Counted from the stretch's first letter, positions 28,544 through 49,425 are shown. The stretch: DNA of 64,000 nt from an uncultured Acidobacteriaceae bacterium (GCA_963771965.1 CAVYVM010000003.1:43381-107380), one strand, 5' to 3'. The notes: a model not told the origin generated them from the sequence alone. Translations and numbers: made by a program.

Positions 28544-29821
28544 ATGTACCTAGCTATTATCGAACCTCATGAAGCGCTGTTCCGCTATTTCGAAGTTGCC
28601 AAGAGAAAAGGCTATCAAACTCTCGTTGTAACCTCAGATGTGGAATCGTCTAAAAAGGATGAGGAAAAGTACAACCTGTCGATCCGAGGGTCGCACGTTT
28701 GCCGCATGGACAAGTTTGTCATATGCGATGTCGGCGACCCCAAGAGCGTGTTGGACGCTTTGACGCCGCTTAAGAAACAGATTGCGGGAATCGTAGCTGG
28801 TCACGAGATATTTGTGCCCCTGGTCGCAGAGGTAGGAGCTGCTCTGGGTTTCGACTACGCTAAACGCGAAGACGCCACCTGCCAGCAGTTGAAGACCGCG
28901 ATGAAGCAACGGCTGATGGACCGAGGCGTGCGCACCGCCAGATTCACGGTATGCAGCGAACTGGATGAGGCTATGCGAGCATGGCATAACTTCGGCCAAG
29001 ACTGCATCGTAAAGATGGTGAATTTCGTCGGAAGCATGAATGTGTTTCGCGTCAGGAGCCAGGAAGATCTCACGACTGCATGGGACATCATTATCAATGA
29101 CAGGAGAGGTGTGAAGACGCCGTTTCCCCGCCTTCTCCAGGTCATTGTCGAAGAATATATTTCGGGGAGAGAGCTTAGCGCTGAGGGCTACGTACAGAAT
29201 GGCCGGGTAGTCGTTCTCAATTCCTGCGAGAAAATAACAGGACCGAACTTCGTTGTCGTGGGTCACCTGCTACCCTCGCAGCTCTCGCCCCAGGAAAAAG
29301 CGAAACTTGAGGAGATAGCTGCGCAGTGTGTGCTGGCACTAGGTGTACACAACACTGTCTTCCACGCCGAAGTGCATATTATGAATGGTGTGCCTTATGT
29401 GATTGAATGCGCGTCTCGTCCTCCAGGACTGCATGTAGCTGAACTTATTAGTCGTTCTTATAACATTGATTTAATGGAAATCAGCATAGATTTGGCGACG
29501 GGCAAGAAAGTAACTGTGTCTCCACGGGCTCCCCACCTTCACTACGCAATGATGGCCCTCTATGCGCAGCAAACAGGAACGCTGAAAAAGATTGAAGGAC
29601 TGGACGAACTGCAAGCTCGTGGCGGAGCGTTGCGAATCCATCTTGGCGTCAAGGAGGGAGATAAGGTGGATGCGTTATCGACCTTCCGCAACAAGTGCGG
29701 GTTTGCGATATTGGAGGACGCGACTCCCGAGGGTGTGCGGGAAAAGGCAGCCTGGTTGCAAGCGAACGTTCACTTCGAGGTCGATAGCACCATGACCGAG
29801 CCTGTTTCAGCCGTCTCTTAA
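28544..29821 (+). CDS. ATP-grasp domain ligase (L-amino-acid-ligase-like), copy 1
   Basis: Pre-ATP-grasp plus ATP-grasp architecture (CIVKMV, VEEYISGRELSAEG, FHAEVH..., YVIECASRPPG). Paralog of 48100..49425. Confidence 0.75.
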   Translation: MYLAIIEPHEALFRYFEVAKRKGYQTLVVTSDVESSKKDEEKYNLSIRGSHVCRMDKFVICDVGDPKSVLDALTPLKKQIAGIVAGHEIFVPLVAEVGAALGFDYAKREDATCQQLKTAMKQRLMDRGVRTARFTVCSELDEAMRAWHNFGQDCIVKMVNFVGSMNVFRVRSQEDLTTAWDIIINDRRGVKTPFPRLLQVIVEEYISGRELSAEGYVQNGRVVVLNSCEKITGPNFVVVGHLLPSQLSPQEKAKLEEIAAQCVLALGVHNTVFHAEVHIMNGVPYVIECASRPPGLHVAELISRSYNIDLMEISIDLATGKKVTVSPRAPHLHYAMMALYAQQTGTLKKIEGLDELQARGGALRIHLGVKEGDKVDALSTFRNKCGFAILEDATPEGVREKAAWLQANVHFEVDSTMTEPVSAVS

Positions 29822-29910
29822 GAAACTGACAGGCAGCCGACAGGCCGTTGGATGATTAAGTGAGTCTGACTCGATCTTACAGCAAGTGCGCGAGCTTGCT
29901 CGACCGCAAA

Positions 29911-31266
29911 CTAACCATGTCCGTGTCCGTGGGCAAAGATTCTTACCGCCTGTCCCACTGGCACTGTGTCAGGAAGCTCTTCTTCGATGAATTTAAGGTG
30001 GCGAGATTGCGAAGCAACCGCCACGGACACAATCACCAGGAGCCCGAGAAGCGTAATGAGAAGCCCAATGCCACGGCTCTCTCCGGTTCCAAAGATCCAA
30101 CCTAACCTGCCGGACAGGGGTCCGCCTTGAATGAGAAGGTGCCGGAAGACTTTGTCTGTGAGCGGGCCCGCGATAACAAAGGCCAGAGGAGCCATGACAT
30201 GATTGATTAAGCCCTTGAGGGCAAAGATACGTCCTTGTAGAACAGGCGCAACCTTTGTCTGCCAAAGGGCCTTGTCTGTGACAATTACAACCGTATAGCA
30301 GAAGTGAAAAGCGAAGATGCTTGCGCTAATCAGCGTCGCCGAAGATCTGAGCCCGGTGAGAGCGATAAATAATCCAGTGAGCGCTCCAAAGCCCAGGATA
30401 CCTGCAATGCGGCGCTTGGGGCCACCCCAGGCGCCCATCACCGTTCCGCCCACTAACCAGCCTATCCCGCCCATGGATAAGACTGTCCCTAGAACCGCGG
30501 GTGAACCAAAGCCCAACACGAGTGGAGTCAGCAAGACTACCGTGAACGCGAGACTGAAATTAATGGCGGCGAAAAGGAGAAGCAAAGTTAGTAAACCTCT
30601 CCTGTCCTTGATATACCGAAAGCCGTTCCATGTTTCGGATAACAATGATGTCTTGTGCGATGCAGATTGTTCGGCAGGCAGCCTCGCAGGTATGCGAATC
30701 ATAAGTAGCGTCAGGACCGCGAATAGGTACGTCGCAAAATCGATCAGCGCTACTCCTTGAACTTTAATGTAGCCAATGAGAACGCCGGCGAGCGTTGGCG
30801 AAATGATCGGAACTGCGGCCTCCGCCATTTCAATCAGGCCATTGGCTCTGCCGAGATGTTCTCGCGGGACCAGCATGGTGGTCGCGGCGGTGTAGGCCGG
30901 CAGTTGTATCGCCGCAAAAATCCGAAGGAGAGCAACCAACAGATAGAGTTGCCAGAGCTGATGCCGTCCTGTGAAGAAGAGGACAGCAAGACAGAGCGTG
31001 CAAAATCCAGCCCCGAGTTCGCTGAAGATCATTGCCCGCCGCAGGTCCCAACGATCCACCATCGCACCCAAGAACGGCAGAAGCACCAGACTGGGGGTCG
31101 TACCGATGAACGATACTAGAGCTAATTTGGTGATGGATCCAGTGACTTGATAGATCCACACGCTCACGGCGAAGGCAGTCAAGCCGCTTCCGACTAACGA
31201 TACTAACTGACCTCCCCATACGATAAAAAATGCAGACTTACGGTCCCACAATGTTCCCCCCGCCAT
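29911..31266 (-). CDS. MFS transporter (putative exporter)
   Basis: About 12 predicted TM segments and an MVDRWDLRR loop motif typical of MFS efflux pumps. Confidence 0.8.
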   Translation of the reverse strand: MAGGTLWDRKSAFFIVWGGQLVSLVGSGLTAFAVSVWIYQVTGSITKLALVSFIGTTPSLVLLPFLGAMVDRWDLRRAMIFSELGAGFCTLCLAVLFFTGRHQLWQLYLLVALLRIFAAIQLPAYTAATTMLVPREHLGRANGLIEMAEAAVPIISPTLAGVLIGYIKVQGVALIDFATYLFAVLTLLMIRIPARLPAEQSASHKTSLLSETWNGFRYIKDRRGLLTLLLLFAAINFSLAFTVVLLTPLVLGFGSPAVLGTVLSMGGIGWLVGGTVMGAWGGPKRRIAGILGFGALTGLFIALTGLRSSATLISASIFAFHFCYTVVIVTDKALWQTKVAPVLQGRIFALKGLINHVMAPLAFVIAGPLTDKVFRHLLIQGGPLSGRLGWIFGTGESRGIGLLITLLGLLVIVSVAVASQSRHLKFIEEELPDTVPVGQAVRIFAHGHGHG

Positions 31267-31304: not shown

Positions 31305-32069
31305 TTATGTTTCCCGGATAATTCTGACTAGCTTAGCATTCCCGCTGATGCGAGCAGGTTGAGGCATCACCTTGGCCGCGCTCGACAATTGGGACTTCTC
31401 GGTTACGATGTTGGCCATGCGCGCTTTACGGATAGCCTCTCGCCGCCGCGTCACCTTGAGCTTCTGCAAAATGTTATGAACATGGCTTTTTGCCGTAGAG
31501 GTTGAAATGCCTAACCGACTGGCAATTTCCTTGTTCGCAAGATGGTAGGACATTAACTGCAGAATTTCCTTCTCCCGCGCGCTCAACATCAAAGGCTGAT
31601 CGCATTCCCCAGATAGCTTTCTGAGCCGTGACACCGCCAGCGTTATTAAATCAGTGGAGTACGACATTTCGTTCCTGTGCACGGTCTTGATCGCCTCGAT
31701 AAGTTGCTCGAATGAGCAATGTTCAGATAGAAATCCATTCACGCCGCCATTGATAAATCCTAGGACGCTTTCTTCTGACGGCTCCAATCCCAAAATGAGT
31801 ATCTTGACGTACGGCAGGGCCATCTTAATGTCGTGAGCAGCTAAAAGTGTACTCAAGCAATCACTCGAGGATTCAAGCAAAAGTACGTGGAAGTTCAGCG
31901 ACTTCATGCCTATCAGTTCGCTCGCAACTTCGAACGTGTTAGCATGGCCGATCACTTGCAGCCCGGGCACCTCCTCCAACGCGACCATAAGTGACTCTGC
32001 AAACAAACGGTGTCCGCTGATCAAGAATGTACGAATCGTCTCTTCTGACGGATGGACATCCTCATGCAT
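31305..32069 (-). CDS. LuxR-family regulator with degenerate receiver domain
   Basis: C-terminal LSAREKEILQLMS...NKEIA..LGIS..TAKSHVHNILQKL HTH. In the N-terminal receiver-like fold, the acidic pocket reads SG and the phospho-Asp position reads LLLES. Confidence 0.8.
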   Translation of the reverse strand: MHEDVHPSEETIRTFLISGHRLFAESLMVALEEVPGLQVIGHANTFEVASELIGMKSLNFHVLLLESSSDCLSTLLAAHDIKMALPYVKILILGLEPSEESVLGFINGGVNGFLSEHCSFEQLIEAIKTVHRNEMSYSTDLITLAVSRLRKLSGECDQPLMLSAREKEILQLMSYHLANKEIASRLGISTSTAKSHVHNILQKLKVTRRREAIRKARMANIVTEKSQLSSAAKVMPQPARISGNAKLVRIIRET

Positions 32070-32125: not shown

Positions 32126-32944
32126 TTAACGACCCGCAAAATGCCCTCTGACAACTTCTAAGTCGCTATTTTTCGGGCCGTTCGTTAGTCCATTATCTCT
32201 AACACTCGATGGAAACTTGGGTTTGCTTGGACTATCAATAATCACCCGCTCCGCAGTTGCCGTTCCCATATTCAGCCGTCTTCTTCCGTAAACTTCTTGT
32301 ACTGCCAGGAGCCGCCTGTTTACGTGTAATTTCCCGAGGATGTTATGGACATGGTTTTTCACGGTATGGGCAGAAATAGATAAGCGGTCCCCAATCTGCC
32401 AATTTGTGAGGCCCGCCGCCATCAATTCTAGGATTTCGTTCTCACGTAAGGTGAGTATCTGCGACTCGCACTCGTGAATGTGCTGGTTTTCGCCGCATAA
32501 ATTTGCCAGTCGCCCAAAAATTGCAGGCGCGGCACTCTGAGAACAAACTACCTCGCCTTTCGCAACCTGCTGGATCGCTGCTCTTATGTCAGAAAGAGAC
32601 ACTTCGCCTGGGATATATCCTTGAGCCCCAGCTTCTAAGTAATAAACCGCAAAGCGCTCAGAAACGGGATCCCCCAAGATAAGTATCTTGACATCGACAA
32701 AGGCTCGCGAAAGAAATGTGATCAAGTCCAGACATCGATCATCTTGATTATCATTTCTTAAAAGAATAATGCTCGAGGGATTTGTTTCGATGTGCGCGCA
32801 GATTTGTGACTTGTCACAATCGGCAATGTCCACCGCGAACTGCCCGATTCTCCGCAGCGCCACGGCCAGACATTCGGCAAACAACCTGTACCAACTGACC
32901 ACGAGTAACGTTGTAGCGCGCGGCATTTCGTTTGATCGGAGCAT
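32126..32944 (-). CDS. LuxR-family regulator with degenerate receiver domain (paralog)
   Basis: LTLRENEILELMAAGLTNWQIGDRLSISAHTVKNHVHNILGKL HTH. The receiver-like N-terminus lacks the DD pair (reads SW) and lacks a clear phospho-Asp. Confidence 0.8.
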   Translation of the reverse strand: MLRSNEMPRATTLLVVSWYRLFAECLAVALRRIGQFAVDIADCDKSQICAHIETNPSSIILLRNDNQDDRCLDLITFLSRAFVDVKILILGDPVSERFAVYYLEAGAQGYIPGEVSLSDIRAAIQQVAKGEVVCSQSAAPAIFGRLANLCGENQHIHECESQILTLRENEILELMAAGLTNWQIGDRLSISAHTVKNHVHNILGKLHVNRRLLAVQEVYGRRRLNMGTATAERVIIDSPSKPKFPSSVRDNGLTNGPKNSDLEVVRGHFAGR

Positions 32945-33208: not shown

Positions 33209-34699
33209 CTAGCCAGCAATTTCAAGCACAGCCCGGTACAAGCTGCGAATGCCCTGCTCAAAGCTGCTGATCGCGACGCGCTCATTTGGGCCATGAACGC
33301 CTCCCAGATCTGCAGGGCTGATTAGAAAGGGCACCCATCCATAACAGGGCACCCCCGCGGAGCGGAAGTAACGCCCGTCGCTTGCACCGGGCGACAAAAT
33401 CGGAGCCACGATGCCGCCTTGTTGTCCGACGGCATGCTTTGCCAGAGCAGCGAATTCCTGTGTTTGAAAATCAGATGTGTTAGCCGGGTGGGCGTGAGAA
33501 GGCAATTGAGAGACGCGTATGCCATCTTTGGAAAGTTCACTAGCAATTTTCTCCCGCATGGTCTCCAAGTCAGATCCCGGCAAGAGCCTAATGTTCAGAA
33601 CTGCCCGCGCCTGGCCTGGCACAAGGTTTCCTTTCATGCCACTTTCAAGGACAGTGAGGGCGATCGTGTCATGAAGCATTGCGTTGACCGCAGGTATCTT
33701 GGACAAGTGTCGCGCAGTCAACCGCGATTTCAGAAGCGGGAATCGAAATAGAAAACGTGCCGGACCCTCGGCCTCACTCGCCAGGCTTTCGAGAAAACAC
33801 TTGGTGGCTGGCGTAATTCGCATTCCGAACTTCATGCTTAACACACGGTTCAAGGCCGCAACCAAACGTGCGGGCGGCGCGTCTCCGGAGATAATGCTCG
33901 CATGATGTCCGTTTGACTCCGCTACACATTCCAACTCTAGGCACGCCTTTTCAGCGACCGCAATCGCATGCACGTCACGGCCATGCCATAGGCCGCGCAC
34001 GGAAAACCCGCCTTCGCCGAACACCAACCCACACTGCAACAGTTCGGGGCGATGCTTCAGCATCCACTCCGTGCCAAAGTGCCCGCCAGCCTCCTCATCG
34101 GCAACAACCAGCAGAATAACATCGCGGTTTAGCGGCACCCGCAACTTGCGAAGCAGAATGACAATCATCAAGTGGGCGATCCCAAGCCCTTTCAGATCCA
34201 ACACCCCTCTTCCGTAAATATATCCTTCACGGACGGTCCCAGAAAATGGGTTAATCGCTGAGTCCCACTCTTGCCGCGAGACAGGGACGACGTCGCTGTG
34301 ACTAAGCAGAATGAGCGGAGGTTTGATTGAGCTACCCGTACTCAGTCGCGCTATAAGATTGATTCTTCCGGGTGCAGACTCCAGTAACTCGGCAGCGATC
34401 CCAGCATCTTGCAACACACTGGCTAGCCATCTCGCGGCGTCGGCTTCGCAGCCTGCCAACCATGGCGCATTTTGGATTTCCGTAGAGCTTAGGCGAAGAG
34501 GGTCATTGACGGTAGGAAATCGGAGGTATTGTCTAAGTAAGTCAACCGCCTGTTCGAGAACCGCAGGCCACGATAGCTCTGACTCCAGCACAGGAAGGTC
34601 TGATAGAGAAGATTGTGGTACCACGTAGCCACCGTTTAAAGGCGATCTTTCACCTTCTGAATTGCTGTGGGATATTGAAGCCTGCTGGTTTTGGAGCAA
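33209..34699 (-). CDS. M20/M25/M40 family metallopeptidase
   Basis: LLSHSDVVP, GRGVLDLKG, VADEEAGG and GASDGRYF motifs of the ArgE/DapE/ACY1/CPG2 clan. Confidence 0.8.
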   Translation of the reverse strand: MLQNQQASISHSNSEGERSPLNGGYVVPQSSLSDLPVLESELSWPAVLEQAVDLLRQYLRFPTVNDPLRLSSTEIQNAPWLAGCEADAARWLASVLQDAGIAAELLESAPGRINLIARLSTGSSIKPPLILLSHSDVVPVSRQEWDSAINPFSGTVREGYIYGRGVLDLKGLGIAHLMIVILLRKLRVPLNRDVILLVVADEEAGGHFGTEWMLKHRPELLQCGLVFGEGGFSVRGLWHGRDVHAIAVAEKACLELECVAESNGHHASIISGDAPPARLVAALNRVLSMKFGMRITPATKCFLESLASEAEGPARFLFRFPLLKSRLTARHLSKIPAVNAMLHDTIALTVLESGMKGNLVPGQARAVLNIRLLPGSDLETMREKIASELSKDGIRVSQLPSHAHPANTSDFQTQEFAALAKHAVGQQGGIVAPILSPGASDGRYFRSAGVPCYGWVPFLISPADLGGVHGPNERVAISSFEQGIRSLYRAVLEIAG

Positions 34700-34710
34700 A
34701 ACGCTTCTCC

Positions 34711-35622
34711 CTATGCGGTTCCTGCCACAGAAGACAATTTGATCGGGCGCTCTCCTTGAACCGTAGTTGGGGCCCGCAAGAACCGTGCAATCAATGAATT
34801 AACCCGATCCGGATCTTCTTCGTGAGGAAGATGGCCACAGTCGGCAAGAATTTCCAACTGAGCATGCTGCATCTCCCTCTTAAACCTCTGCGCATTGTCT
34901 ACCGGCAATATGTGGTCCTTAGCTCCCCAAATAATCAGAGTCTCGTGAGGTATCGCTGGAATAATCGCTGCCAGCCGACTTTCGTCAAACTCTTCCAAGG
35001 TAGCTAGAAAGCTCCGCTCGCCCGATTCCGACCGAAGCAACTGAAAATAAGAATCAACTAGATCCGGGGTAGCACGGCTCCTGTCCTTATAGGAGCGACG
35101 CAGCCCAGCTGCAAAGATTCGCCTGCCAAACATGTCCGATCGCAACGTCGGCTCCAGCAGCTTTCTAAGCACGTTGATACGCAGTAGTTGCTCAATGGAG
35201 TGTCGTCCTCCTGGGTAGCCTACGCTGTTAATCAATACGAGTCGGTCTACTTTTTCTGGACACTTCCTTGCCAGCGCGAGGGCAACTGCGCACCCGTATG
35301 AGCTGCCCGCTATACTGACTCGCGACAGCCTAAGCTTCTCCATCAGTTGCAAAACAAATTGCACATGAGCTTCGGGGCTATAAAGTCCTGCTACCTTCGA
35401 TGAACGTCCGAAGCCCTTCATATCCAGTGCTATAACATCCAGAGACGTTGATAACTCAGGTATGTTACGACGCCAGGTAAGTAAGGAAAGAGGTGCACCA
35501 TGCAACAAGATGACTGGAGCACCTACTCCCCTGCGCACAAAACAAGCGTCCCCGTCGGGAAGAGTAATTGTTTGAGCGTCGTGATAGCTAGCGCTCATCA
35601 CCTGAGATGAAATAGATGGCAT
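34711..35622 (-). CDS. alpha/beta hydrolase
   Basis: HGAPLS oxyanion region, GSSYG nucleophile elbow (GxSxG), C-terminal CGHLPHEE. Confidence 0.8.
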   Translation of the reverse strand: MPSISSQVMSASYHDAQTITLPDGDACFVRRGVGAPVILLHGAPLSLLTWRRNIPELSTSLDVIALDMKGFGRSSKVAGLYSPEAHVQFVLQLMEKLRLSRVSIAGSSYGCAVALALARKCPEKVDRLVLINSVGYPGGRHSIEQLLRINVLRKLLEPTLRSDMFGRRIFAAGLRRSYKDRSRATPDLVDSYFQLLRSESGERSFLATLEEFDESRLAAIIPAIPHETLIIWGAKDHILPVDNAQRFKREMQHAQLEILADCGHLPHEEDPDRVNSLIARFLRAPTTVQGERPIKLSSVAGTA

Positions 35623-35917
35623 TTTGTGTTACCGAGTCTCACGACATCTGCCATACTAACTCAACACGTTTGTTGGCTTACGGCCAGTGCCGGACGCTCT
35701 CACTGTTGAGTTCAGAAACCATAGGCAGCACGACCTTTTCTATTCGAAAAACCACCCAGGCCACAATAGACCGTTTGGTCCAATATGGAACTATAGGGCT
35801 AGTGTCGCTTGCCATGAGAAGTGGAGTTCCCAACGATCTGCGAGATGCCGGCAAATCTTTTGCTTGCTTTTTACCCCTCGGCAATGCGATTAAGATAATT
35901 CAGTAGGGTTTGGAAAT

Positions 35918-37219
35918 ATGCGCAAATATGTTGGGGTTGATTTCGGCACCACAAACAGTGCCGTAGCCATTGCCGAGGAGGATGGCAGCGTGCGCACGGT
36001 GCGATTCCCTGCGGGGAACGATAGCACCGAAAGTTTCAGGTCGCTCATTTACTTCGAGCGCGTTCGAGAGAACGGGCGCTTTCATCTTCGCGCTCATACC
36101 GGACCGGAGGCCATCACGCGATATTTAGCGTCAGACGAAAAGGGCCGCCTCATTCAGTCTTTAAAGGCGTTTCTACCCAGCACATTGGTGCGGTCCACCA
36201 GGATTTTCAACACGGTCTACATGCTCGAAGACATGGTCGCGTTTCTTGTTCAACAGCTTCTAAGAAAGTCTGAGAATCTGGTGGGCGAACTCGGGCCCAA
36301 ATCTGTGGTTGGCAGGCCGGTGCGATTTTCAAGCAAGGAGTCGGCAACGGATGATTCTCTTGCAGTCCAGAGACTGCAGGACGCCTTCCTGAGGGCTGGC
36401 ATGGCGGATGTTACATTTGAATACGAACCGGTCGCAGCGGCCTACTATTACGAGAGCCTTCTTCACAAAGATGAGATCATTTTGGTCGCAGACTTCGGCG
36501 GTGGTACCAGTGACTTCTCTCTTGTTCGTCTGGGACCTTCCTTCCGGGGCACATTTGCTGACCGGGAGATTCTCGGCAGTGAAGGCATCGCGTCCGCCGG
36601 CGATGCTTTCGACGCAAAAATCGTTAAGCATCTCGTCTCGCCGCTACTGGGAGCTGATTCGGGGTATCGATCTCTTGGGAAGCTCTTGGTTATGCCAGCG
36701 TGGATTTACATTCACCTTGAACATTGGCATCACTTATCTTTTCTGAAAAGCAAGGACACCATGGATGTCCTGACAAGTTTGCGAGCAATGGCAGTGGAAC
36801 CGGAGAGAATAGATAATCTGATCAATGTCATTCAGGATGACCTGGGCTTTCACCTGCACCAAGCCGTTCAGAAGACTAAAGCTACATTATCGGAAGCCGA
36901 CAGTAGCTTATTTTTCTTCGACGTGCCGGGCATTTCAATTAGCAAGCAAGTGACACGAAGTGACTTTGAAATTTGGATTGCCGAAGAACTCGACATGATT
37001 TCACACTGCCTGGACCACCTCATTAAAGAGTCGGACGTGAGACCATCACAAGTCGACCGTGTCTTCTTGACCGGCGGGACCTCTTTCGTGCCGGCGGTTC
37101 GGCAGATCTTTCTGAAACGCTTTAGCGCCGATCGGATCGCAACTGGCGCCGAGTTTACCTCAGTTGCGAAGGGACTGGCTTTACGGTCGTTAGAACTTGC
37201 TCGGTTAGAGAACCGCTGA
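35918..37219 (+). CDS. Hsp70-family ATPase, nucleotide-binding domain only (YegD-like)
   Basis: VGVDFGTTNSAVA phosphate-1 motif, DFGGGTSD phosphate-2, LTGGTSFVP adenosine motif. At 433 aa there is no canonical substrate-binding domain. Confidence 0.8.
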   Translation: MRKYVGVDFGTTNSAVAIAEEDGSVRTVRFPAGNDSTESFRSLIYFERVRENGRFHLRAHTGPEAITRYLASDEKGRLIQSLKAFLPSTLVRSTRIFNTVYMLEDMVAFLVQQLLRKSENLVGELGPKSVVGRPVRFSSKESATDDSLAVQRLQDAFLRAGMADVTFEYEPVAAAYYYESLLHKDEIILVADFGGGTSDFSLVRLGPSFRGTFADREILGSEGIASAGDAFDAKIVKHLVSPLLGADSGYRSLGKLLVMPAWIYIHLEHWHHLSFLKSKDTMDVLTSLRAMAVEPERIDNLINVIQDDLGFHLHQAVQKTKATLSEADSSLFFFDVPGISISKQVTRSDFEIWIAEELDMISHCLDHLIKESDVRPSQVDRVFLTGGTSFVPAVRQIFLKRFSADRIATGAEFTSVAKGLALRSLELARLENR

Positions 37220-38977: not shown

Positions 38978-39018
38978 CCCGCGGCCACCCACTCGTCTCG
39001 GCCTCAGCAAAACGGAAG

Positions 39019-40593: not shown

Positions 40594-40618
40594 TGATCAA
40601 TATTCGAGGAGAACGTTT

Positions 40619-41920: not shown

Positions 41921-41940
41921 CGCGCGGGGAGACTCGACCA

Positions 41941-42657
41941 ATGTTGATGTACGGATGGATGAAATTTGTCGAATTGGCGCCTGAACGCTATGACTGGGCT
42001 GTGAGGCTCATGACGGCGGGAAGGTTGGATCGACTGAAGGACCGCATTGCCAGCATGGTCAACGCCAATGACCGGGTTCTCGACATTGGGTGCGGTACCG
42101 GGACCCTGGCTTTGCGGATGCTGCGTCGAGGAGCGAATGTCACAGGGCTGGACATGTCTGAGCACATGCTCGGAGTAGCGCGCAAATATGCAGATGGCGA
42201 AGGACTAGGTTCCCGGCTTGTGCTCATCAAAGACAGTGTGACCCAGCTTAGCAAACATGCCCAGCCGGGCAGCTTCGACTGCATCGTGTGCACCATGGTT
42301 TTGGGCGAGCTAAGTTCCGAGTACGTGAAGTTTGTCTTTGACGAATGTTTCAACTTGTTGCGGCCCGGAGGGCGTTTGCTGATTGGGGACGAAGTGTGGC
42401 CGGAAAATCCTTTCATGCACGCCATTTACCGAGCCATGCTCGTCGTGTCGTGGATCCCACAGTTTCTCCTTCTCCGCCGGGTGAACTATCCAGTCAGCGA
42501 CATGCGGCGGCTTGTTCAGGATGCGGGTTTCAAAATCAATCACGTTGAAAACTGGCTTATGACTTCTTTCAGCCTCATCGCAGCAACAAAATCTGAGGAC
42601 CTAAAAGCGAACAGTCCAAGCTTCTCTAGCATCGAGCAGATGCAATGGGTGCAATAG
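41941..42657 (+). CDS. class I SAM-dependent methyltransferase
   Basis: VLDIGCGTGTL motif I and LRPGGRLLIGD post-II region. Confidence 0.8.
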   Translation: MLMYGWMKFVELAPERYDWAVRLMTAGRLDRLKDRIASMVNANDRVLDIGCGTGTLALRMLRRGANVTGLDMSEHMLGVARKYADGEGLGSRLVLIKDSVTQLSKHAQPGSFDCIVCTMVLGELSSEYVKFVFDECFNLLRPGGRLLIGDEVWPENPFMHAIYRAMLVVSWIPQFLLLRRVNYPVSDMRRLVQDAGFKINHVENWLMTSFSLIAATKSEDLKANSPSFSSIEQMQWVQ

Positions 42658-42663
42658 AAGGGG

Positions 42664-43908
42664 TTGCTCATGGGGCGACTAAGTGGGTTCTTGTGGGAAA
42701 CATTCCACACTTTCTTCAGAAACTTCAATTTCCCGTGTGAACTTGGATTGATTCGAGTAGGCAATCCAACGGTCGATTCCCCTGTATTCGTAAGTGGAAA
42801 CTACAGTCTTGTGGTTGAGAGATTGTTACGCGTGCTGCAGGGTACGGACTGCTATTTGCTCGTAGCCAATTCTCGCGGCTCCAACGTTTGGTGTGCGGCG
42901 GGGATGAATGAATATACCGAACACGACATTGTGGATGCCATCAATGTCAGCCACTTATCCAAGATAGTCCGTCATAGGCAAATTATCGCTCCGCCCTATG
43001 CCGCCCCCGGAGTTGACATTCGTGCCATCAAGCGCGAAACCGGATTTCACATTAAATGGGGGCCCACACATCTCGACGACATCCCGGCATACATCAAGCA
43101 CGGCTACAAACGAAGCAACGAGATGGTCCAGGTGCAATTTGGGTTTCGCGACCGCCTGGAGCAGGCGCTCGCGAACACCTGCACCTATTCTCTGACGATT
43201 GCGATCGGGTTGCTGTTCTTTCCAAAATTTATTCTGGGACTGATGGCCCTGATCGCGACCGGGCACCTGCTCTGGTTTTGCGGCTGGAACTGGCTTCCGG
43301 AAGAGCGTTACTGGCGGCGTACCGCGACCGTTGCCGCCATCATGATGCTGCTCGTGGCCGGCTTCGGAAATTTGCGAGGTTGGTCAGCGTCGCAGTTTGC
43401 GATTTGGCTCGTTACTACATTCATCCTGGTTGTGGTAATGGGAATCGACGGATGCGGCAGCTCCGCCGTCTACAAGACCACCGCGGTGCATTGGATCACC
43501 AAGGGTAACTACGACAGCCTGTTCGATCCGGTCATCGATCCCGAGAGGTGCACAAATTGCATGCAGTGCGTCCTCGTATGCCCTATGAACGTGTTCGCGG
43601 CCAAAAGGACCGGCGACTATAAGGTGGTCGCCGTACATCCGGACAATTGCATCGATTGTATGGCCTGCGTGAAGCAGTGCGACGACGACGCGTTTTTCAA
43701 TCGCTCCACGGAATTTAAGGGCGACGTTAAGAGTGTTCCGAACCTAGCGGTAATAATGACCCGCGACTGGTCGCACTTGAAGGACGAAGATCGCTGGCTA
43801 AACCATCCGACAACTTTACGAAACGGGCTTCCAGTCTTGGACACGTCTTGCAACGGTAAGGCCACGCAAACAGCGGAGCAGACTCATGGATCGGTTGCTT
43901 TTTCCTAA
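42664..43908 (+). CDS. fused HgcA-like corrinoid protein / transmembrane domain / HgcB-like 2x[4Fe-4S] ferredoxin
   Basis: N-terminal CdhD/CFeSP-like domain with cap-helix motif GSNVWCAAGM (HgcA consensus N(V/I)WCA(A/G)GK), plus DSPV..NY, HR..I.P...APGV, TGF...GP. About 4 TM helices at residues ~173-262. Ferredoxin motifs CTNCMQCVLVCP and CIDCMACVKQC. Confidence 0.7.
   Translation: MLMGRLSGFLWETFHTFFRNFNFPCELGLIRVGNPTVDSPVFVSGNYSLVVERLLRVLQGTDCYLLVANSRGSNVWCAAGMNEYTEHDIVDAINVSHLSKIVRHRQIIAPPYAAPGVDIRAIKRETGFHIKWGPTHLDDIPAYIKHGYKRSNEMVQVQFGFRDRLEQALANTCTYSLTIAIGLLFFPKFILGLMALIATGHLLWFCGWNWLPEERYWRRTATVAAIMMLLVAGFGNLRGWSASQFAIWLVTTFILVVVMGIDGCGSSAVYKTTAVHWITKGNYDSLFDPVIDPERCTNCMQCVLVCPMNVFAAKRTGDYKVVAVHPDNCIDCMACVKQCDDDAFFNRSTEFKGDVKSVPNLAVIMTRDWSHLKDEDRWLNHPTTLRNGLPVLDTSCNGKATQTAEQTHGSVAFS
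42883..42903 (+). other. HgcA-type cap-helix motif NVWCAAG (Cys77 codon at 42892-42894)
   Basis: aac gtt tgg tgt gcg gcg ggg, read directly from the sequence. Confidence 0.85.
43549..43683 (+). other. two CX2CX2CX3C [4Fe-4S] ferredoxin motifs (HgcB-like module)
   Basis: CTNCMQCVLVCP ... CIDCMACVKQC. Confidence 0.85.
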
Positions 43909-44758
43909 TAGCTTCGGGCTTTCGCACCAGGGCTTCGAGATCGAAGTCGTCCCGGAGGGTTGCCGGCGATACCCCGAGCTGCTCGAAAGCATTCAGGAGC
44001 AGGTCTTACGGATCGCAACCTTCTCTCGTGGCTGGGATGAACAGAGTCTGGACCACATGCGGACCTATTTCAAGTTGGGTCCACTCTACGAGGCAAACTC
44101 TTTAGTGCTGATCAAAAAAAACGACACGCTGGTGGGATTGGTTGGTAGCGTGAATGATTGGCGTGTCGATGGGCGTTCCTTGATCCATCTTTGCAGCCTG
44201 GGATTGCTGCCGTCGGCCCAGCGGCGTGGATTTCTGCCGGTTCTGCTCGGAATCCTTTGGACCATTACATTACGCCGGCCAGAGATTAACGAAGATTTTC
44301 GTCAGGGTCGGAGTTATATCTCCGCTATCACGCAGAGCCCCTACCTTTATGCCGCATTGCATAAGTTGTTCGATCTCTATCCTTCTCCAGACCATTCGGT
44401 TGTTCCCGCAGAGGTGCGCGACCTGGCCCATGCGGTAGTGGATCGCTTTGACGAAGAACTGCAGTTGGAGGAGGAAACGTTGACGCTGAGAAACGAATGC
44501 CGATTTTTTTATCAGAAGACGCCTTACAGTACCAGCCGGGAGTTGAACTCGTTCTGTGACCAAAACCTTAACTATCGCAACGGGGATGTCTTTGTACTGA
44601 TAGGTCGAGTAATTCAAGAACGAGTGGAACAGTATATCGAGTTTGTTGCGAACACACATTCCGACCTATATCTCCGTTTCTGCGTGGCCCTTGAAGAACA
44701 TGGTTATAAGGACATTCGTCAGACGAATATGACCGTGGGGATTGCATCCCGTGGCTAA
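43886..44758 (+). CDS. hypothetical protein, possibly GNAT-fold acyltransferase
   Basis: Overlaps the upstream stop by 23 nt. A LVGLVGS...LCSLGLLPSAQRRGFLPVLL segment resembles the GNAT beta4-alpha3 CoA site. Weak call. Confidence 0.4.
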   Translation: MDRLLFPNSFGLSHQGFEIEVVPEGCRRYPELLESIQEQVLRIATFSRGWDEQSLDHMRTYFKLGPLYEANSLVLIKKNDTLVGLVGSVNDWRVDGRSLIHLCSLGLLPSAQRRGFLPVLLGILWTITLRRPEINEDFRQGRSYISAITQSPYLYAALHKLFDLYPSPDHSVVPAEVRDLAHAVVDRFDEELQLEEETLTLRNECRFFYQKTPYSTSRELNSFCDQNLNYRNGDVFVLIGRVIQERVEQYIEFVANTHSDLYLRFCVALEEHGYKDIRQTNMTVGIASRG

Positions 44759-46478
44759 AAGCAAAGATCTCTATACCCTTTGTTATTCGCGAAACATTGG
44801 AATCCTTACCGAAAAGGAACAGCAGCGTCTTGGCCAGGCGGCGGTCGCCATAGCCGGGATGGGCGGCATTGGCAGCAATACTGCGGTGTTACTGGCACGG
44901 ATGGGGGTCAGCAAATTCCGGCTCGCCGATTTCGATACGTTCGAATATGCCAACGTGAACCGCCAATACGGAGCGTTTCTTGACACCATCGGTCACCCAA
45001 AAGTTGCGGTCATGGAAAAAGAGCTGCGACGGATTAACCCGAAGGCTGAAGTTACAGTTGAGACCGGAGGGTTCACCGCCGATAACGCTGAACGATTTCT
45101 AACTGGGGTTGACTTAGTCATCGATGCTATCGATTTTTACTCCATCGAAGCACACCTGGAACTGCATCGCCAGGCCCGTAAACGAGGGCTCTACGTGTTC
45201 ATGGGATCTCCCGTTGGTTTTAGCGCTTGTCTTCAGATCTTTGATCCCGAAGGCATGAGCCTGGAAGAGTATTGCGGAATTGAGCCGGGCATGATGGGGC
45301 TGGAAAAACAATTACGTTATGCGTGCGGAGTAGTGCCGAATTTGGCCCACATCGATTACTTCGACGTGTCGCAGGGACCCTCGAACACAAACTTCCTAAA
45401 GAAGACCGGCCCATCGCTGGCTTGCGCGACAACCCTCGCCGCATCGCTGGTAGCAAGCGAGGTCGCGATCATGCTGGCGAGCCGCCGCAAGCCAAAAGCC
45501 ATTCCGTACACTTTTCAATTTGATCCTTATACCTTTCGCTACGAAAAGGTATGGCTTGAAAAAGGAATGGCGAGCTTCGATGTAGACCGCGCTTTAAGCC
45601 GCCTTCAGGATCGATCCTCTTTAATTCCTCTGGTCTTGAAGTACCTCTACAAGCGCCGGAAAACACATCGTGCAAAGGTGAACGGCGCGGAGCTCTACTA
45701 CGAAATGGAGGGCGAGGGCGATAATCTGCTGCTCATCGGCCCGCTTGGCGCTGACTCAAGTTTCTGGGCGCGGCAGGTACAGCAACTGGCCCAGCATTTC
45801 CGAGTGATCACTTTCGACAGCCGTGGCACAGGGTTCTCCACTGCGTGCAAACAAAGCCACTCCACCGTCGAGATTGCAGAGGATGCAATCGCCCTTCTGA
45901 AAAAACTTGGCATACGACGTACCCATGTGGTTGGACTCGCTTTAGGAGGCCTGGTTGCCCAACACATCGCCGTACTTCAGCCATCTCTTGTCGACCAGTT
46001 AGCGCTCGTATCCACCTATGCCAAGGCTGATGAGGTTATTAGTGCAACCGTGTCAGGCTGGCAGCAGATCGCGTCGAGGCAGGGCATGGACGAGTTATTT
46101 GACGCCTCCGTGGAATCGCTGTTTTCAAGTGAGTATGTGCAAAGCGCGAACGGCGAAATCGACAAGCTCCGCACGTTCTTTCATTTGAACCTGCAGGACC
46201 CAATGAATTTTATCTATCAGAGTACCGCAGGAATTCTTCATGATTCCAGGGGCCTGCTATCGAAGATCGCATGCCCCACCCTGGTATTGCATGGTGGAGC
46301 GGATCGCGTCGTCGACCTGTCTCATGGAAAGGAATTGGCTGCGGGCATTCGGAGTTCAAGGCTTGAAGTGATGGAACGAGCGTCGCACTTTATGAATTGG
46401 GAGCGCCCGGAAGGCTTCAACGAGACAGTCTTTCAATTCCTCACAGCCTCACCGGAAGTCTCGCAGCGTTCAGCATGA
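44742..46478 (+). CDS. ThiF/MoeB/E1-like adenylyltransferase fused to alpha/beta hydrolase
   Basis: N-terminus: VAIAGMGGIGSNTAVLLARMGV (GxGxxG Rossmann) ...DFD....NVNRQ. C-terminus: FDSRGTGFS and LGGLVAQ (nucleophile-elbow-like), LHGGADRVV, ASHFMNWERPE. The start codon is uncertain (TTG at 44742 or GTG at 44751). Confidence 0.75.
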   Translation: MHPVAKSKDLYTLCYSRNIGILTEKEQQRLGQAAVAIAGMGGIGSNTAVLLARMGVSKFRLADFDTFEYANVNRQYGAFLDTIGHPKVAVMEKELRRINPKAEVTVETGGFTADNAERFLTGVDLVIDAIDFYSIEAHLELHRQARKRGLYVFMGSPVGFSACLQIFDPEGMSLEEYCGIEPGMMGLEKQLRYACGVVPNLAHIDYFDVSQGPSNTNFLKKTGPSLACATTLAASLVASEVAIMLASRRKPKAIPYTFQFDPYTFRYEKVWLEKGMASFDVDRALSRLQDRSSLIPLVLKYLYKRRKTHRAKVNGAELYYEMEGEGDNLLLIGPLGADSSFWARQVQQLAQHFRVITFDSRGTGFSTACKQSHSTVEIAEDAIALLKKLGIRRTHVVGLALGGLVAQHIAVLQPSLVDQLALVSTYAKADEVISATVSGWQQIASRQGMDELFDASVESLFSSEYVQSANGEIDKLRTFFHLNLQDPMNFIYQSTAGILHDSRGLLSKIACPTLVLHGGADRVVDLSHGKELAAGIRSSRLEVMERASHFMNWERPEGFNETVFQFLTASPEVSQRSA

Positions 46479-46537
46479 CTTTCGAACGGCGTGGCTGGTG
46501 GAAGGACGACCCAGGTTGAACCGCAGGAGTAACTGCA

Positions 46538-47281
46538 ATGAAGAAAGATAACGATGACAACCACGCAATCGAAAAGCGCTCTCAGCCGCGTTGGCGCAAG
46601 TATAGCTCTAAGATCTTTTCCTGGTTCAACAAGGAACAATATGAGCTCTATCTGGCGGGGTGCGTGGCGTTTTCATTCGGGGCGAATGCGTTTATTGCCT
46701 CACATCTCGGTACGGACCCCCTGGACGTCTTTTCTCTAGGCCTGAAGAAGCATATGCCTATGACCATTGGCATAGCGCAGGGAGGGTTTGCGGCTTTGTG
46801 CCTGGTGGTGTGGGGCATATGGAATAGAAGAAGACCTCCGCTCTCTCCTTTTTTTACTTTCTTCTTTTGTGGTTCCTTGATTGATCTCTGGATGTGGAGT
46901 GGCATTGCTAATCAACTGCGATTAGGCCCCTATCTTCTGCTCGTGCTGGGCGTGATGCTCTGTGGAATAGGATCGGCACTGATCATCATGAGCGGCATCG
47001 GAATTCGAGCCATGGATCTCGTTGCCATCACGATGTACGAAAGGCTCGGCCAGCCATTCTGGCTGTGTAAAGGAATACTGGAAGTGATGTTGCTCGTGTC
47101 TGGATGGCTGATGGGGGGACCCGTAGGAATCGGAACAGTCGCGTTCCTGGGGGTTGTCGGGTGGTCGATCCAACCTATGATGTGGTTTGGCGGGCGCTAC
47201 TTTAGCCTGCCAAACTATGGTCTACGGCCTACCTCAGCCGCGCCTGACCGACTGGCGAATCAACAAGTGTACGGGCAATAG
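46538..47281 (+). CDS. integral membrane protein (YczE/YitT-like)
   Basis: About 6 hydrophobic segments. A GTDPLDVFSLGL-like motif resembles the YczE family. Moderate confidence. Confidence 0.55.
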   Translation: MKKDNDDNHAIEKRSQPRWRKYSSKIFSWFNKEQYELYLAGCVAFSFGANAFIASHLGTDPLDVFSLGLKKHMPMTIGIAQGGFAALCLVVWGIWNRRRPPLSPFFTFFFCGSLIDLWMWSGIANQLRLGPYLLLVLGVMLCGIGSALIIMSGIGIRAMDLVAITMYERLGQPFWLCKGILEVMLLVSGWLMGGPVGIGTVAFLGVVGWSIQPMMWFGGRYFSLPNYGLRPTSAAPDRLANQQVYGQ

Positions 47282-47302
47282 GGCACAGGCAGTGAGGGGA
47301 AT

Positions 47303-48025
47303 ATGAAACCGACCGGGCTACAAAAACGTTCTTCTAAGCGTGGGCGGTCGGACAGCGGCACGCAGTGGAGCTATAGGCATGACTTGGTTTTCTTTGGGGA
47401 ACTGCTGCACAAAAGACATTATATTTCCGGCGTCGACGGGAACCTATCCGTCCGCTTGGATTCCACGCGCGTGTTGACGACGCCGACTGGAATGAGTAAA
47501 GGATTCATGAAGCCGGCGGATATGGTGGTTGTAGATCTTGATGGCGAGAGAGTCAGCGGCACACATAAACCCTCGAGCGAACTTGAAATGCATCTCACCA
47601 TTTACAAGCTTCGGCCGGATGTCGGGGCGGTAATCCACGCTCATCCCTGTACCGCAACCGGCTTTGCATCCTCAGGACTTGGCCTGACCGAGGCTGTTTG
47701 TTCGGAACTCGTATTAACCTTGGGTGGAGTACCTCTGGCAGAGTATGCGCTTCCCGGCAGCGCAGAGCTTAGTGAGTCTTTGCGGCCATTTATACGGAGC
47801 CACGACGCGATTCTCATGGAAAACCATGGAGTCGTCGCCTACGGAGCGACATTAATGCAGGCATATCTCAACATGGAGTCCGTCGAGCACAGCGCGATGA
47901 TAATGCTTGTTACCAAGATTATAGGCCGGGCGAATACTCTCAGCGAAAAAGAGGTAGGCCGCCTGCTCGCACGCAGATCGAAAGACAGGTCTCTGGTTCA
48001 ACCTTCAGTAGCGGAGATGATGTAA
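47303..48025 (+). CDS. class II aldolase/adducin-domain protein
   Basis: ISGVDGNLSVRL, SSELEMHLTIY, AVIHAHP, MENHGVV motifs of the FucA/MtnB/AraD family. Confidence 0.8.
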   Translation: MKPTGLQKRSSKRGRSDSGTQWSYRHDLVFFGELLHKRHYISGVDGNLSVRLDSTRVLTTPTGMSKGFMKPADMVVVDLDGERVSGTHKPSSELEMHLTIYKLRPDVGAVIHAHPCTATGFASSGLGLTEAVCSELVLTLGGVPLAEYALPGSAELSESLRPFIRSHDAILMENHGVVAYGATLMQAYLNMESVEHSAMIMLVTKIIGRANTLSEKEVGRLLARRSKDRSLVQPSVAEMM

Positions 48026-48099
48026 GTCTTCGCGATGCCAACTTGTCAGAATCACAGTAAGGCTCTCGCCTCCCCGAGCCGGCAAATCGTATATATTTA

Positions 48100-49425
48100 T
48101 TGTTACTAAATAACTCGAGAGACCTTGCGATGGAACAAGCTGCTCCAGCCTTAGTGCAATCGCCAACGGAAAAATCCGACACCTACATTGTGATCGTTGA
48201 ACCCTTCACGTCTCTTTTTCGCTACGTACAAATTGCCCATCGGCGCTTTCGAACATTGGTAATCAGTGCCAATCCACAGGACTGCCTGGCGCGCGAGAAG
48301 GCATACAATTCTTCTATCGGCCAGCCGGAGGTCACCCACATTGATCGGTTCATACAGTGCGATACGTCTGACGTTTCGGTTATGCGCCAAGCGCTGGAGC
48401 CTATGAGGACAGAACTTGCTGGCGTTTTAGGAGCGCAAGAAACATTTTTGGCTGTGAGCTTGGAGTTGGGCTGGAGCCTGGGATTTGACTATGCCAAGCC
48501 GGAAGATGCGATTACCCATCGTTTAAAGAGCGCCATGCGGCGCCGGTATCAAGAACGCGGGGTACCGTCGCCACGGTTTTTCGTCGCAACTACGTTGGAA
48601 CAAGCCAAGCAGTCGTGGGAGGACCTAGGACGCGATTGCATGGTCAAAATGGTGGACGCTGACTCCAGCATGAACATTTTTCGGGCAACTACTTTAGACG
48701 AACTCGAATCCGCCTGGGACATCATCATAAACAACCGCAGAAATATAAAGAGCCTGATACCACTTTCCAAAGAGGTAGTGCTCGAAGAATTTGTTACCGG
48801 CCGCGAGCTTACGGTGGAAGGCTATACCCAGGGTGACCGCGTCGTCTGCCTGAATTTCTCGGAAAAAATTACCGAGAGTTCGTTCGTTGTGGTCGGTCAT
48901 CTGATTCCCGCTATGGTGTCCGCAAAAGAAGAGCAAATCTTGAGCAAATTGGCCGATCAAGTTGTCCGCGCCGAAGGAATGCGCAACAGCGTATTTCATA
49001 TGGAGGTACATCTACAGGGCGATAAGCCATATGTAATTGAGTGCACTTCGCGGCCTCCGGGCCAGCATGCTGCGGAAGTGATCTATCGTTCGCATGGCTG
49101 CGACCTCATGGACATCGGCGTTTCGCTCGCAGTCGGAGAGCCGGTCTTTGACGAACTCAGTCCACCGAAGAAACATTTTGCCATGTTGGCACTATATTCT
49201 CTGCGCGAAGGCATCTTCGAAAAGCTCGAAGGAGAGGAAGAGTTGAAGCGCCGCGGAGGTCTGTTTCACTTGCATCTCGACGTAAAGCCCGGAGATCGAA
49301 TCGAGCCGTTGTCGACCTTTCGCCAGAGATATGGATTCGTCATTCTTGAAGACGATACGGCGGAGGGAGTGCGCGAAAAAGCCCGTTGGGCGCGAACTCA
49401 CCTGCACCTGGCGCTGAAGAATTGA
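48100..49425 (+). CDS. ATP-grasp domain ligase (L-amino-acid-ligase-like), copy 2
   Basis: Colinear with 28544..29821 over the full length (LGFDYAK.EDA, CMVKMV, AWDIIINNRR, YVIECTSRPPG, GVREKA.W). The likely start is the ATG at 48130. Confidence 0.75.
   Translation: MLLNNSRDLAMEQAAPALVQSPTEKSDTYIVIVEPFTSLFRYVQIAHRRFRTLVISANPQDCLAREKAYNSSIGQPEVTHIDRFIQCDTSDVSVMRQALEPMRTELAGVLGAQETFLAVSLELGWSLGFDYAKPEDAITHRLKSAMRRRYQERGVPSPRFFVATTLEQAKQSWEDLGRDCMVKMVDADSSMNIFRATTLDELESAWDIIINNRRNIKSLIPLSKEVVLEEFVTGRELTVEGYTQGDRVVCLNFSEKITESSFVVVGHLIPAMVSAKEEQILSKLADQVVRAEGMRNSVFHMEVHLQGDKPYVIECTSRPPGQHAAEVIYRSHGCDLMDIGVSLAVGEPVFDELSPPKKHFAMLALYSLREGIFEKLEGEEELKRRGGLFHLHLDVKPGDRIEPLSTFRQRYGFVILEDDTAEGVREKARWARTHLHLALKN

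Follow-up and report, generated by a model that had tools for sequence, protein, structure and literature searches.

The stretch of DNA analysed here (the window) comprises 64,000 nt from an uncultured Acidobacteriaceae bacterium (GCA_963771965.1 CAVYVM010000003.1:43381-107380). Positions 28544-49425 carry seventeen genes that a first reading of the sequence, the original prediction, had put forward as a candidate biosynthetic system. Gene families were assigned with Pfam and NCBIfam; scores are in bits and cutoffs are the curated cutoffs of the models. Every open reading frame (ORF) of the original prediction is present at its coordinates, and each of its domain calls was upheld by Pfam or NCBIfam, or by predicted structure in the case of the GNAT call (Table 1). 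The region is an intact accessory gene cluster of biosynthetic type and belongs to a conserved, uncharacterised cluster family. This family probably (at roughly 60%) carries out the biosynthesis of a ribosomally synthesised and post-translationally modified peptide (RiPP), or at least the modification of a peptide tail. Its central enzymes are three radical S-adenosylmethionine (SAM) enzymes, the methyltransferase CpaM, and a membrane-embedded corrinoid protein related to the mercury-methylating HgcAB.

Table 1. Features of the cluster in the window, core genes first, and large proteins of related loci (L numbers).
Feature	Position	Strand	Evidence
AmrS-like radical SAM enzyme, extra C-terminal domain of ~130 aa	37502-38977	+	TIGR04337 302.9 (cutoff 220), residues 20-344
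SPASM-type radical SAM enzyme, peptide-maturase-like	39019-40593	+	Best NCBIfam models nif11-like, PapB, and SCIFF maturases, all below cutoff
HemN-like (class C-type) radical SAM enzyme	40619-41920	+	Radical_SAM and HemN_C
CpaM, SAM-dependent methyltransferase	41941-42657	+	NF043040 248.1 (cutoff 180)
HgcAB-like fusion: corrinoid domain, four transmembrane helices, 2x[4Fe-4S] ferredoxin domain	42664-43908	+	NF043039 361.9 (cutoff 285)
unk290, GNAT-fold 290-aa protein	43886-44758	+	Small cluster-specific family; AlphaFold2 model and Foldseek
E1/ThiF-like adenylyltransferase fused to PcaD-like alpha/beta-hydrolase	44742-46478	+	PRK08223 269.5 (cutoff 266)
YczE-like (DUF6198) membrane protein	46538-47281	+	NF052291 87.5, below cutoff; L016 ortholog DUF6198
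Class II aldolase/adducin-family enzyme, accessory	47303-48025	+	Aldolase_II 162
LAL2, second ATP-grasp L-amino-acid ligase (LAL), lineage-specific paralog	48100-49425	+	LAL_C2 54.3 (cutoff 29.4) and ATP-grasp_4
LAL1, ATP-grasp L-amino-acid ligase	28544-29821	+	ATP-grasp_4 and LAL_C2 57.4 (cutoff 29.4)
Major facilitator superfamily (MFS) efflux transporter, putative exporter	29911-31266	-	MFS_1 108; NCBIfam H+ antiporter, EntS/Mef-like
LuxR/GerE regulator 1, NarL-like layout	31305-32069	-	GerE 60; no Pfam receiver match
LuxR/GerE regulator 2	32126-32944	-	GerE 64
M20 metallopeptidase or deacylase	33209-34699	-	Peptidase_M20 and M20_dimer
Stand-alone alpha/beta-hydrolase (ABH)	34711-35622	-	Abhydrolase_1 99.6
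Hsp70-like (YegD-type) ATPase, lineage-specific accessory	35918-37219	+	HSP70 76; PRK11678-like
Candidate operator palindrome CAATAGACCATT-N9-AACGGTCTATTG	37406-37438		Inverted repeat, 12-nt arms, 92% complementary
Second palindrome copy, 2 mismatches	35766-35794		Divergent ABH/Hsp70 promoter region
tRNA-Leu(TAA)	49471-49560	-	ARAGORN and Rfam RF00005, 61 bits; 45 nt past last cluster gene
Large 720-890-aa protein, L002	15345-17834		
Large 720-890-aa protein, L005	15238-17637		
Large 720-890-aa protein, L010	1372-3594		
Large 720-890-aa protein, L011	16320-18590	-	
Large 720-890-aa protein, L020	9728-12403		
Large 720-890-aa protein, L035	247-2610	-	

Conservation was assessed from 22 HgcAB-like proteins, which were aligned and then used to fetch 15 genome and 24 metagenome loci with at most 10 kb of flanking sequence. 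Two further loci came from exact-protein look-ups, and all 41 were searched by tblastn with the window proteins. The core consists of the genes for the AmrS-like, CteB-like SPASM, and HemN-like radical SAM enzymes, CpaM, the HgcAB-like protein, the GNAT-fold protein, and the ThiF/hydrolase fusion. It is complete and in conserved order, at 36-78% identity, in at least 17 of the 41 loci, as the original prediction had asked of a core of three radical SAM enzymes, methyltransferase, HgcAB, and E1. These loci belong to Acidobacteriota, Actinomycetota, Chloroflexota, and Alphaproteobacteria, with Acidobacteriaceae, Pyrinomonadaceae, Thermoanaerobaculia, Streptosporangiaceae, Chloroflexi, Bradyrhizobium, Stappia, Telmatospirillum, and other alphaproteobacteria represented. 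The usual companions of the core are an alpha/beta-hydrolase, an M20 or DUF2817 protein, and a LAL1-like ligase. The AmrS-like gene alone is found in 28 of the 41 loci, including nearly all with enough upstream sequence. Such co-conservation indicates a real functional unit of about 12 genes with lineage-specific accessories. The seventeen genes had been described as one coherent unit; this holds for about 12 of them, whereas the Hsp70-like, aldolase, second LAL, and MFS genes are lineage-restricted or sporadic. The operon proposed at 37502-49425 is indeed co-directional, with intergenic gaps of 41, 25, 20, 6, -23, -17, 59, 21, and 74 nt in order; the overlap of 23 nt is as described, and the widest gap is 74 nt rather than about 100 nt. 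A literature search found no match to the cluster, in agreement with the statement that no such pathway has been described.

The nature of the product is indicated by a peptide gene in the relatives. An unmasked search for small ORFs gave only shadow frames of large genes; once the conserved genes were masked, a peptide family was found. Its members, of 67-82 aa, combine a helical leader bearing an H-x-x-L ... (Y/H)-H-x-E pattern with a C-terminal ...A-x-C-W whose Cys is near-invariant, and the family has no match in Pfam or NCBIfam. A profile hidden Markov model (HMM) places copies beside cluster genes in nine of the fetched loci (L002, L005, L007, L011, L017, L020, L022, L025, and L029). Two more loci, L042 and L043, were fetched through the peptide itself, and 41 matches came out when 1.84 billion representatives were searched exhaustively with HMMER. 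The endings in a 46-sequence set are CW (30), CL (4), CR (4), VC (4), and five others. Thermoanaerobaculia L005 carries two peptide genes in tandem, at 20572-20817 (-) and 20872-21099 (-), that are 49% identical; tandem duplication is typical of RiPP precursors.

The ending of the peptide goes together with the gene that follows. All three Cys-terminated peptides (L007, L042, and L043) have a gene for an HFCD flavoprotein directly next to them, and the HFCD family (EpiD/LanD enzymes) oxidatively decarboxylates C-terminal cysteines. Peptides ending in C-W or C-R are followed by a protein of 720-890 aa without a Pfam domain and by a ligase; this large-protein family always adjoins the ligase gene, often right after a C-W peptide gene. 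In L042, a single co-directional string encodes the peptide, the HFCD protein, the AmrS-like, SPASM, and HemN-like enzymes, CpaM, the HgcAB-like protein, a 277-aa protein in the unk290 position, and the ThiF/hydrolase. Since the peptide ending predicts the adjacent tailoring gene, the pathway of the family is most likely of RiPP type. The conserved Cys of a peptide at the head of the operon, combined with a CteB-like SPASM enzyme, points to the same chemistry.

The SPASM enzyme of the window has CteB (PDB 5wgg), a thioether-forming SCIFF maturase, as its closest PDB structure (E 9e-29), with an alignment that begins at residue 48, and it carries the SPASM-type motif C422X2C425X5C431X3C435. Pfam finds no PqqD or RiPP recognition element (RRE) match in it. 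Its N-terminal region is 40-57% identical to the orthologs of four of the five peptide-encoding loci compared (32% in L011), against 47-68% for the catalytic core. The second enzyme, HemN-like, scores 213.6 with the HemW model (cutoff 205.4) and 218 with the ChuW/HutW model (cutoff 400); its PDB matches are HemN (1olt, E 2e-36) and the methyltransferase NocN (9p2u, E 5e-21). The third is recognised by TIGR04337, the model for the radical SAM component of the AmmeMemoRadiSam system, and carries a CX3CX2C motif (Cys94/98/101). Neither an AMMECR1 nor a Memo domain occurs among the 17 cluster proteins or 12 scanned flanking proteins. Residues 345-491 of this AmrS-like enzyme form a C-terminal domain missing from the 349-position AmmeMemoRadiSam model, in which W376, H384, R422, and DRAHFP 452-457 are invariant in 16 orthologs. 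Only the subfamily that accompanies HgcAB-like proteins has this domain. No B12-binding domain was matched at the reporting threshold in any of the three radical SAM proteins.

A SPASM enzyme, a peptide with a conserved leader and conserved last residues in the relatives, and peptidases (M20 or DUF2817) that could free a C-terminal fragment are also features of the mycofactocin, pyrroloquinoline quinone (PQQ), and pearlin systems. The cluster might accordingly mature a redox or other cofactor, with the SPASM enzyme modifying the peptide C-terminus, the peptidases releasing it, and the remaining enzymes finishing a diffusible product; the spread of the cluster across phyla in conserved order would fit such a role. 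However, an MftB/PqqD-type RRE, an MftD/PqqC-type finishing enzyme, and a tRNA-dependent PEARL ligase were not detected here, no cofactor-dependent oxidoreductase is co-conserved in the loci examined, and an exporter and LuxR regulators are present. These last genes, the patchy distribution, and the variable accessories resemble secondary metabolism, and the family is rare, with 175 HgcAB-like and 38 unk290 clusters among 5.8 billion proteins. We therefore regard cofactor maturation as improbable.

Two further core proteins lie directly downstream of the corrinoid protein. The unk290 family has no Pfam domain, and all of its named members are annotated as hypothetical. The AlphaFold2 model has a predicted local distance difference test value (pLDDT) of 91.4 and was assigned to the GNAT fold by Foldseek with a probability of 1.0 and TM-scores of 0.3-0.5. 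The gene directly follows that for the HgcAB-like protein in full clusters, with one gene between them in the alphaproteobacterial loci, and in the window it overlaps its neighbours by 23 and 17 nt. The next gene encodes a ThiF domain (residues 15-271, 142 bits) fused to an Abhydrolase_1 domain (residues 329-556), an arrangement kept in all full clusters with 45-75% identity. ThiF-like enzymes that activate the C-terminal carboxylate of a precursor peptide are established, and GrcB works with two radical SAM enzymes and a C-terminal Cys (PMC12250964). The cluster family resembles the systems of MccB, PaaA, GrcB, and EnfB in combining E1/ThiF-like and radical SAM enzymes, a transporter, and regulators, with a reactive Cys/carboxylate end on the relatives' peptide. 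Those systems lack a corrinoid protein, a HemN-like radical SAM enzyme, and a LAL, and the C-terminal alpha/beta-hydrolase is a further difference.

The HgcAB-like protein passes the NF043039 model, with residues 11-344 aligned to model positions 2-349, whereas it fails the HgcA equivalog model NF040863 (159.3; cutoff 275) and scores 38.7 with the HgcB model (cutoff 99). Its AlphaFold2 model (pLDDT 82.3) shows a corrinoid domain of alpha/beta type, four long helices (residues 161-265), and a ferredoxin domain. The top Foldseek match is an HgcAB model (9a0b_A, E 1e-11), followed by corrinoid domains of the corrinoid iron-sulphur protein (CFeSP) with root-mean-square deviations of 3.3-3.5 Å. In the cap-helix motif N74-V-W-C77-A-A-G80-M, residues N74, V75, W76, C77, A78, and G80 are invariant in the 22 homologs, and the final Lys of the HgcA consensus N(V/I)WCA(A/G)GK is replaced by Met in the window protein. 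All eight Cys of the ferredoxin domain are invariant in the same alignment, whereas the C-terminal Cys pair of HgcB has no conserved counterpart in the tail, the lone Cys396 of the window protein not being conserved. The protein thus shares with HgcAB a CFeSP-like corrinoid domain, an N-V-W-C-A-x-G cap helix with its Cys, a transmembrane bundle, and a 2x[4Fe-4S] ferredoxin module. It differs from HgcAB in uniting HgcA and HgcB in one chain, in being accompanied by a dedicated CpaM and an AmrS-like enzyme, and in occurring in aerobic Bradyrhizobium, Stappia, and Kineosporia. An exact-sequence database look-up of the window protein gave no match.

CpaM, named corrinoid protein-associated methyltransferase in NCBIfam, is encoded 6 nt upstream of the HgcAB-like gene, and the two genes adjoin each other in 38 of the 41 loci. 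In Chloroflexi, they are naturally fused into proteins of 646-651 aa (L007, 9263-11203; P0033; P0082), which is Rosetta-stone evidence that both proteins act together.

The HgcA-type fold, the conserved cap-helix Cys, and a weak similarity of CpaM to ArsM-type methyltransferases (42-43 bits) might suggest a different function, namely detoxification: CpaM would load the HgcAB-like protein, which would methylate a metal or metalloid (Hg, As, Se, or Te) much as true HgcAB does Hg(II), and the other genes would be unrelated neighbours. In HgcB, Cys73 and the C-terminal pair C94/C95 are needed for Hg methylation (PMC11588087), and the protein described here has no such conserved pair and lies far below the HgcA cutoff. 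Fused HgcAB was found in 2015; Pyrococcus furiosus carries one, and its cultures gave no methylmercury, which does not, according to the authors, prove the protein inactive (PMC4646819). Nor would such a role explain why, across phyla, the gene is tightly linked in operons and translationally coupled to those of peptide-modifying enzymes, and no metal-resistance genes are among the matches of the window cluster. Metal or metalloid methylation is hence a highly improbable function for the cluster. HgcAB is also able to dechlorinate halomethanes (bioRxiv 2026). The presence of a fused HgcAB in the aerobe Breoghania has been remarked on as unexplained (bioRxiv 10.1101/2022.11.21.517362). Searches of the literature for the CpaM name, AmmeMemoRadiSam function, and HgcA with radical SAM or biosynthetic gene cluster terms found nothing relevant, and no description of a gene neighbourhood was found in the mercury literature on fused HgcAB.

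The AmrS-like enzyme, CpaM, and the HgcAB-like protein also occur without the remainder of the core, in six loci with long flanks (L004, L006, L015, L027, L032, and L033). Four of these share a second context (L004, 3583-13977; L006, 4972-18180; L027; L033) with genes for extra radical SAM enzymes, 2-oxoacid dehydrogenase E1 alpha and beta subunits, a hexapeptide-repeat transferase, a Cys/Met pyridoxal-phosphate enzyme, an ABC1 kinase, and an acyl-AMP ligase with a carrier-protein reductase. This context looks like another uncharacterised pathway, and the C-terminal domain of the AmrS-like enzyme is shared by both. Because the trio recurs in an unrelated type of cluster, we infer that it is a portable module, which would pass methyl groups from SAM to cobalt and on to a substrate.

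Such a module may be compared with the class B radical SAM methyltransferases (Fom3, TokK, Mmp10, and TsrM). As in these enzymes, a radical SAM [4Fe-4S] enzyme, SAM, and a methyl-corrinoid would all be available, and with these cofactors a peptide or small molecule could be methylated at unactivated positions. Class B enzymes hold their B12 and radical SAM domains in one soluble polypeptide, whereas here they are separate proteins, and the corrinoid carrier is of the HgcA/CFeSP fold, membrane-embedded, Cys-ligated, and equipped with its own ferredoxin domain and methyltransferase. The functional coupling of radical SAM and corrinoid chemistry is deduced from co-occurrence. As a tentative proposal, about which we are more doubtful than about the RiPP-type pathway itself, the trio may be a multi-component, membrane-anchored, cobalamin-dependent radical methyltransferase, that is, a split relative of class B serving as a portable peptide-tailoring module.

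If that proposal were true, the orphan clade of fused HgcAB proteins would gain its first physiological role, and Hg methylation by HgcAB might be a secondary activity of an ancient machinery for biosynthetic methyl transfer; the module would represent a new way to couple radical SAM and corrinoid chemistry. The clade has been unexplained since 2015, is counted or filtered out in surveys of Hg methylation, and is present even in aerobes. HgcAB-like proteins now acquire a context across phyla, namely CpaM and a specialised radical SAM enzyme, usually in a peptide-modifying operon headed by a Cys-ending peptide. Their function becomes testable through a defined substrate candidate and partner proteins, and environmental surveys would be helped to tell true Hg methylators from look-alikes. 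In Acidobacteriota, Actinomycetota, Chloroflexota, and Alphaproteobacteria, the clusters also point to natural products of an unexplored class.

In the RiPP-type pathway envisaged for the family, the Cys-containing C-terminal tail of a ribosomal peptide would be remodelled. The SPASM enzyme would act on the peptide, and the ThiF domain would adenylate a carboxylate and pass the acyl group to the fused hydrolase domain. Within the trio, Co(I) of the Cys-ligated corrinoid would be methylated by CpaM or directly by SAM, with the ferredoxin domain holding the cobalt reduced, and the methyl group would then be transferred to a substrate position readied by the radical SAM partner. The hydrolases and ligases may trim or extend the product, the MFS protein would export it, and the LuxR pair would regulate the genes through a shared palindromic operator.

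Several observations weigh against this pathway, at least in the lineage of the window. No member of the peptide family was detected in the 64-kb window or in L001, L014, L016, and L018, as judged by HMMs built from 5, 12, and 46 sequences (without filters), jackhmmer from three seeds, and a listing of intergenic ORFs and ORFs with Cys-aromatic endings. The HFCD gene and the large 720-890-aa protein are likewise missing from the lineage, which carries two free-standing amino-acid ligases. The SPASM enzyme scores below every curated maturase cutoff. The ThiF domain, unlike those of the ThiF-dependent RiPP systems, has no N-terminal peptide-recognition element and, starting at residue 15, leaves no room for an RRE. 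Scans for sigma-70 promoters and intrinsic terminators were at chance level. Finally, in true HgcAB it is SAM and not methyl-tetrahydrofolate that methylates the Cys-ligated cobalamin, via a methyl-Co(III) intermediate (PMC11588087); since this self-methylation takes place without a separate methyltransferase, the role of CpaM is in question. Two ORFs considered as peptide genes, one ending in ...AARCW in L001 and one of 45 aa between the ABH and Hsp70-like genes, were rejected as chance or non-conserved.

The missing peptide gene keeps a non-ribosomal reading alive for the window lineage. In such a leaderless pathway, the radical SAM and corrinoid enzymes would convert a free metabolite into an unusual amino acid, ligation by LAL1 and LAL2 would turn this into a di- or tripeptide antimetabolite, the GNAT-fold and M20 proteins would add and remove a protecting acyl group, and the MFS protein would export the product. 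Like the BacD, RizA, TabS, and DdaF pathways of dipeptide antibiotics, the cluster has two LAL_C2 ATP-grasp ligases, a peptidase, and an MFS exporter. The nearest PDB structures of the ligases are indeed the L-amino-acid ligases BL00235, RizA, and BacD; an M20 enzyme of deacylase type and a GNAT-fold protein are at hand; and neither the HFCD gene nor the large protein, both of which go with peptides elsewhere, occurs in this lineage. On the other hand, the core enzymes, including SPASM and its N-terminal region, are 42-68% identical to those of the peptide-encoding clusters, which suggests the same kind of substrate. Pfam finds among the 17 proteins no domains for the warheads of known LAL pathways (phosphoenolpyruvate mutase, the prephenate/anticapsin route, a beta-lactam synthetase, or the tabtoxin beta-lactam genes). 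In the relatives, moreover, the ligase gene stands immediately after the ribosomal peptide gene, suggesting ligation to or from the peptide and not between two free amino acids. The precursor gene could be elsewhere in the genome; the retention of the SPASM N-terminal region makes this plausible, and a leaderless variant is plausible as well. On balance, we consider the leaderless pathway rather unlikely. The bacilysin, tabtoxin, or rhizocticin logic of the original prediction, which stays alive in this lineage, is probably not the main logic of the family, given the relatives' peptide and the CteB-like SPASM enzyme.

The accessory genes differ in how widely they are shared. LAL1 is 42-55% identical to the ligases of 14 related loci, mostly slightly nearer to them than LAL2, and is likely the ortholog of the single ligase in related clusters; as a query against the LAL2 orthologs of L016 and L018 it gives 47% identity. 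In Streptosporangiaceae L003, an 812-aa protein (16665-19103), encoded after an MFS gene downstream of the ThiF/hydrolase, has both an ATP-grasp and a FemAB-type GNAT domain (Acetyltransf_6) and may be an alternative ligation system. Orthologs of the M20 protein (48-63%) lie within the core operon of L002, L003, L005, L008, L022, L025, L026, and L035, and in alphaproteobacterial L017 a DUF2817 protein occupies this slot. Most full clusters include an ABH ortholog (38-62%), which often separates the HemN-like gene from CpaM. The YczE-like protein is present in L001, L008, L012, L025, L027, and L032. Most relatives have no MFS ortholog within 10 kb, and the MFS genes of L003 and L015 are unrelated. 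The Hsp70-like gene is restricted to the Acidobacteriaceae versions of the cluster (L001, L014, L016, and L018), and the aldolase is found beyond the 96-98%-identical L016 and L018 only in L006 and L014. The window lineage is thus marked by an Hsp70-like gene that heads the operon and by the second ligase, the aldolase, and the MFS gene.

LuxR pairs also flank the clusters of L002, L022, and L025, and regulator 1 of the window matches NarL/MadR-type models over its full length, below their cutoffs. The palindrome that precedes the start codon of the operon by about 65 nt is a candidate binding site. Within the leader it is the segment conserved best, being kept in L016 and L018 and, partly, as the only stretch alignable in L001. 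Four matches to it are found in the 64-kb window against 1.1 expected, two of them within the 577 nt of cluster intergenic DNA. This pattern is suggestive of an operator common to both promoter regions, to which the adjacent LuxR pair may bind. An Rfam scan gave no family at gathering score in the operon leader or the rest of the cluster, and no cobalamin or SAM riboswitch was detected.

The cluster is bordered on the left by an FtsX/MacB-type permease gene and on the right by the tRNA-Leu(TAA) gene, with housekeeping genes beyond. The original prediction had contrasted a GC content of 42-57% inside the cluster with 63-75% in the flanks and had seen in this a sign of horizontal acquisition. 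Measured values are 0.525 for 28544-49425, 0.550 for 1-28543, and 0.569 for 49426-64000, and no 1-kb window over the 64 kb exceeds 0.62, so that flanks of 63-75% do not exist and the difference is only 2.5-4.4 points. The site recurs among Acidobacteriaceae relatives, beside the gene for an FtsX-type permease in L014 and beside a PilZ gene in L016. No integrase was seen, and a plasmid search found the HgcAB-like gene on none. With this small difference in composition, recurrent neighbour genes, no integrase, and no plasmid match, recent horizontal acquisition as judged from composition was rejected. As neither an integrase nor a direct repeat was seen, the tRNA gene marks a border and does not by itself speak for integration. 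In L016, a 96%-identical relative, a transposase of the IS1595 family (DDE_Tnp_IS1595 and Zn_ribbon_IS1595; 17739-18582) lies between the last cluster gene and the PilZ gene; this element is absent from the window.

Two features of the left flank are unrelated to the cluster: a fluoride riboswitch (crcB motif, RF01734) at 46-124 (+), with 57.3 bits against a gathering score of 34, and a gene at 18958-22305 (-) for a 1115-aa protein with Sortilin/Vps10-type repeats.

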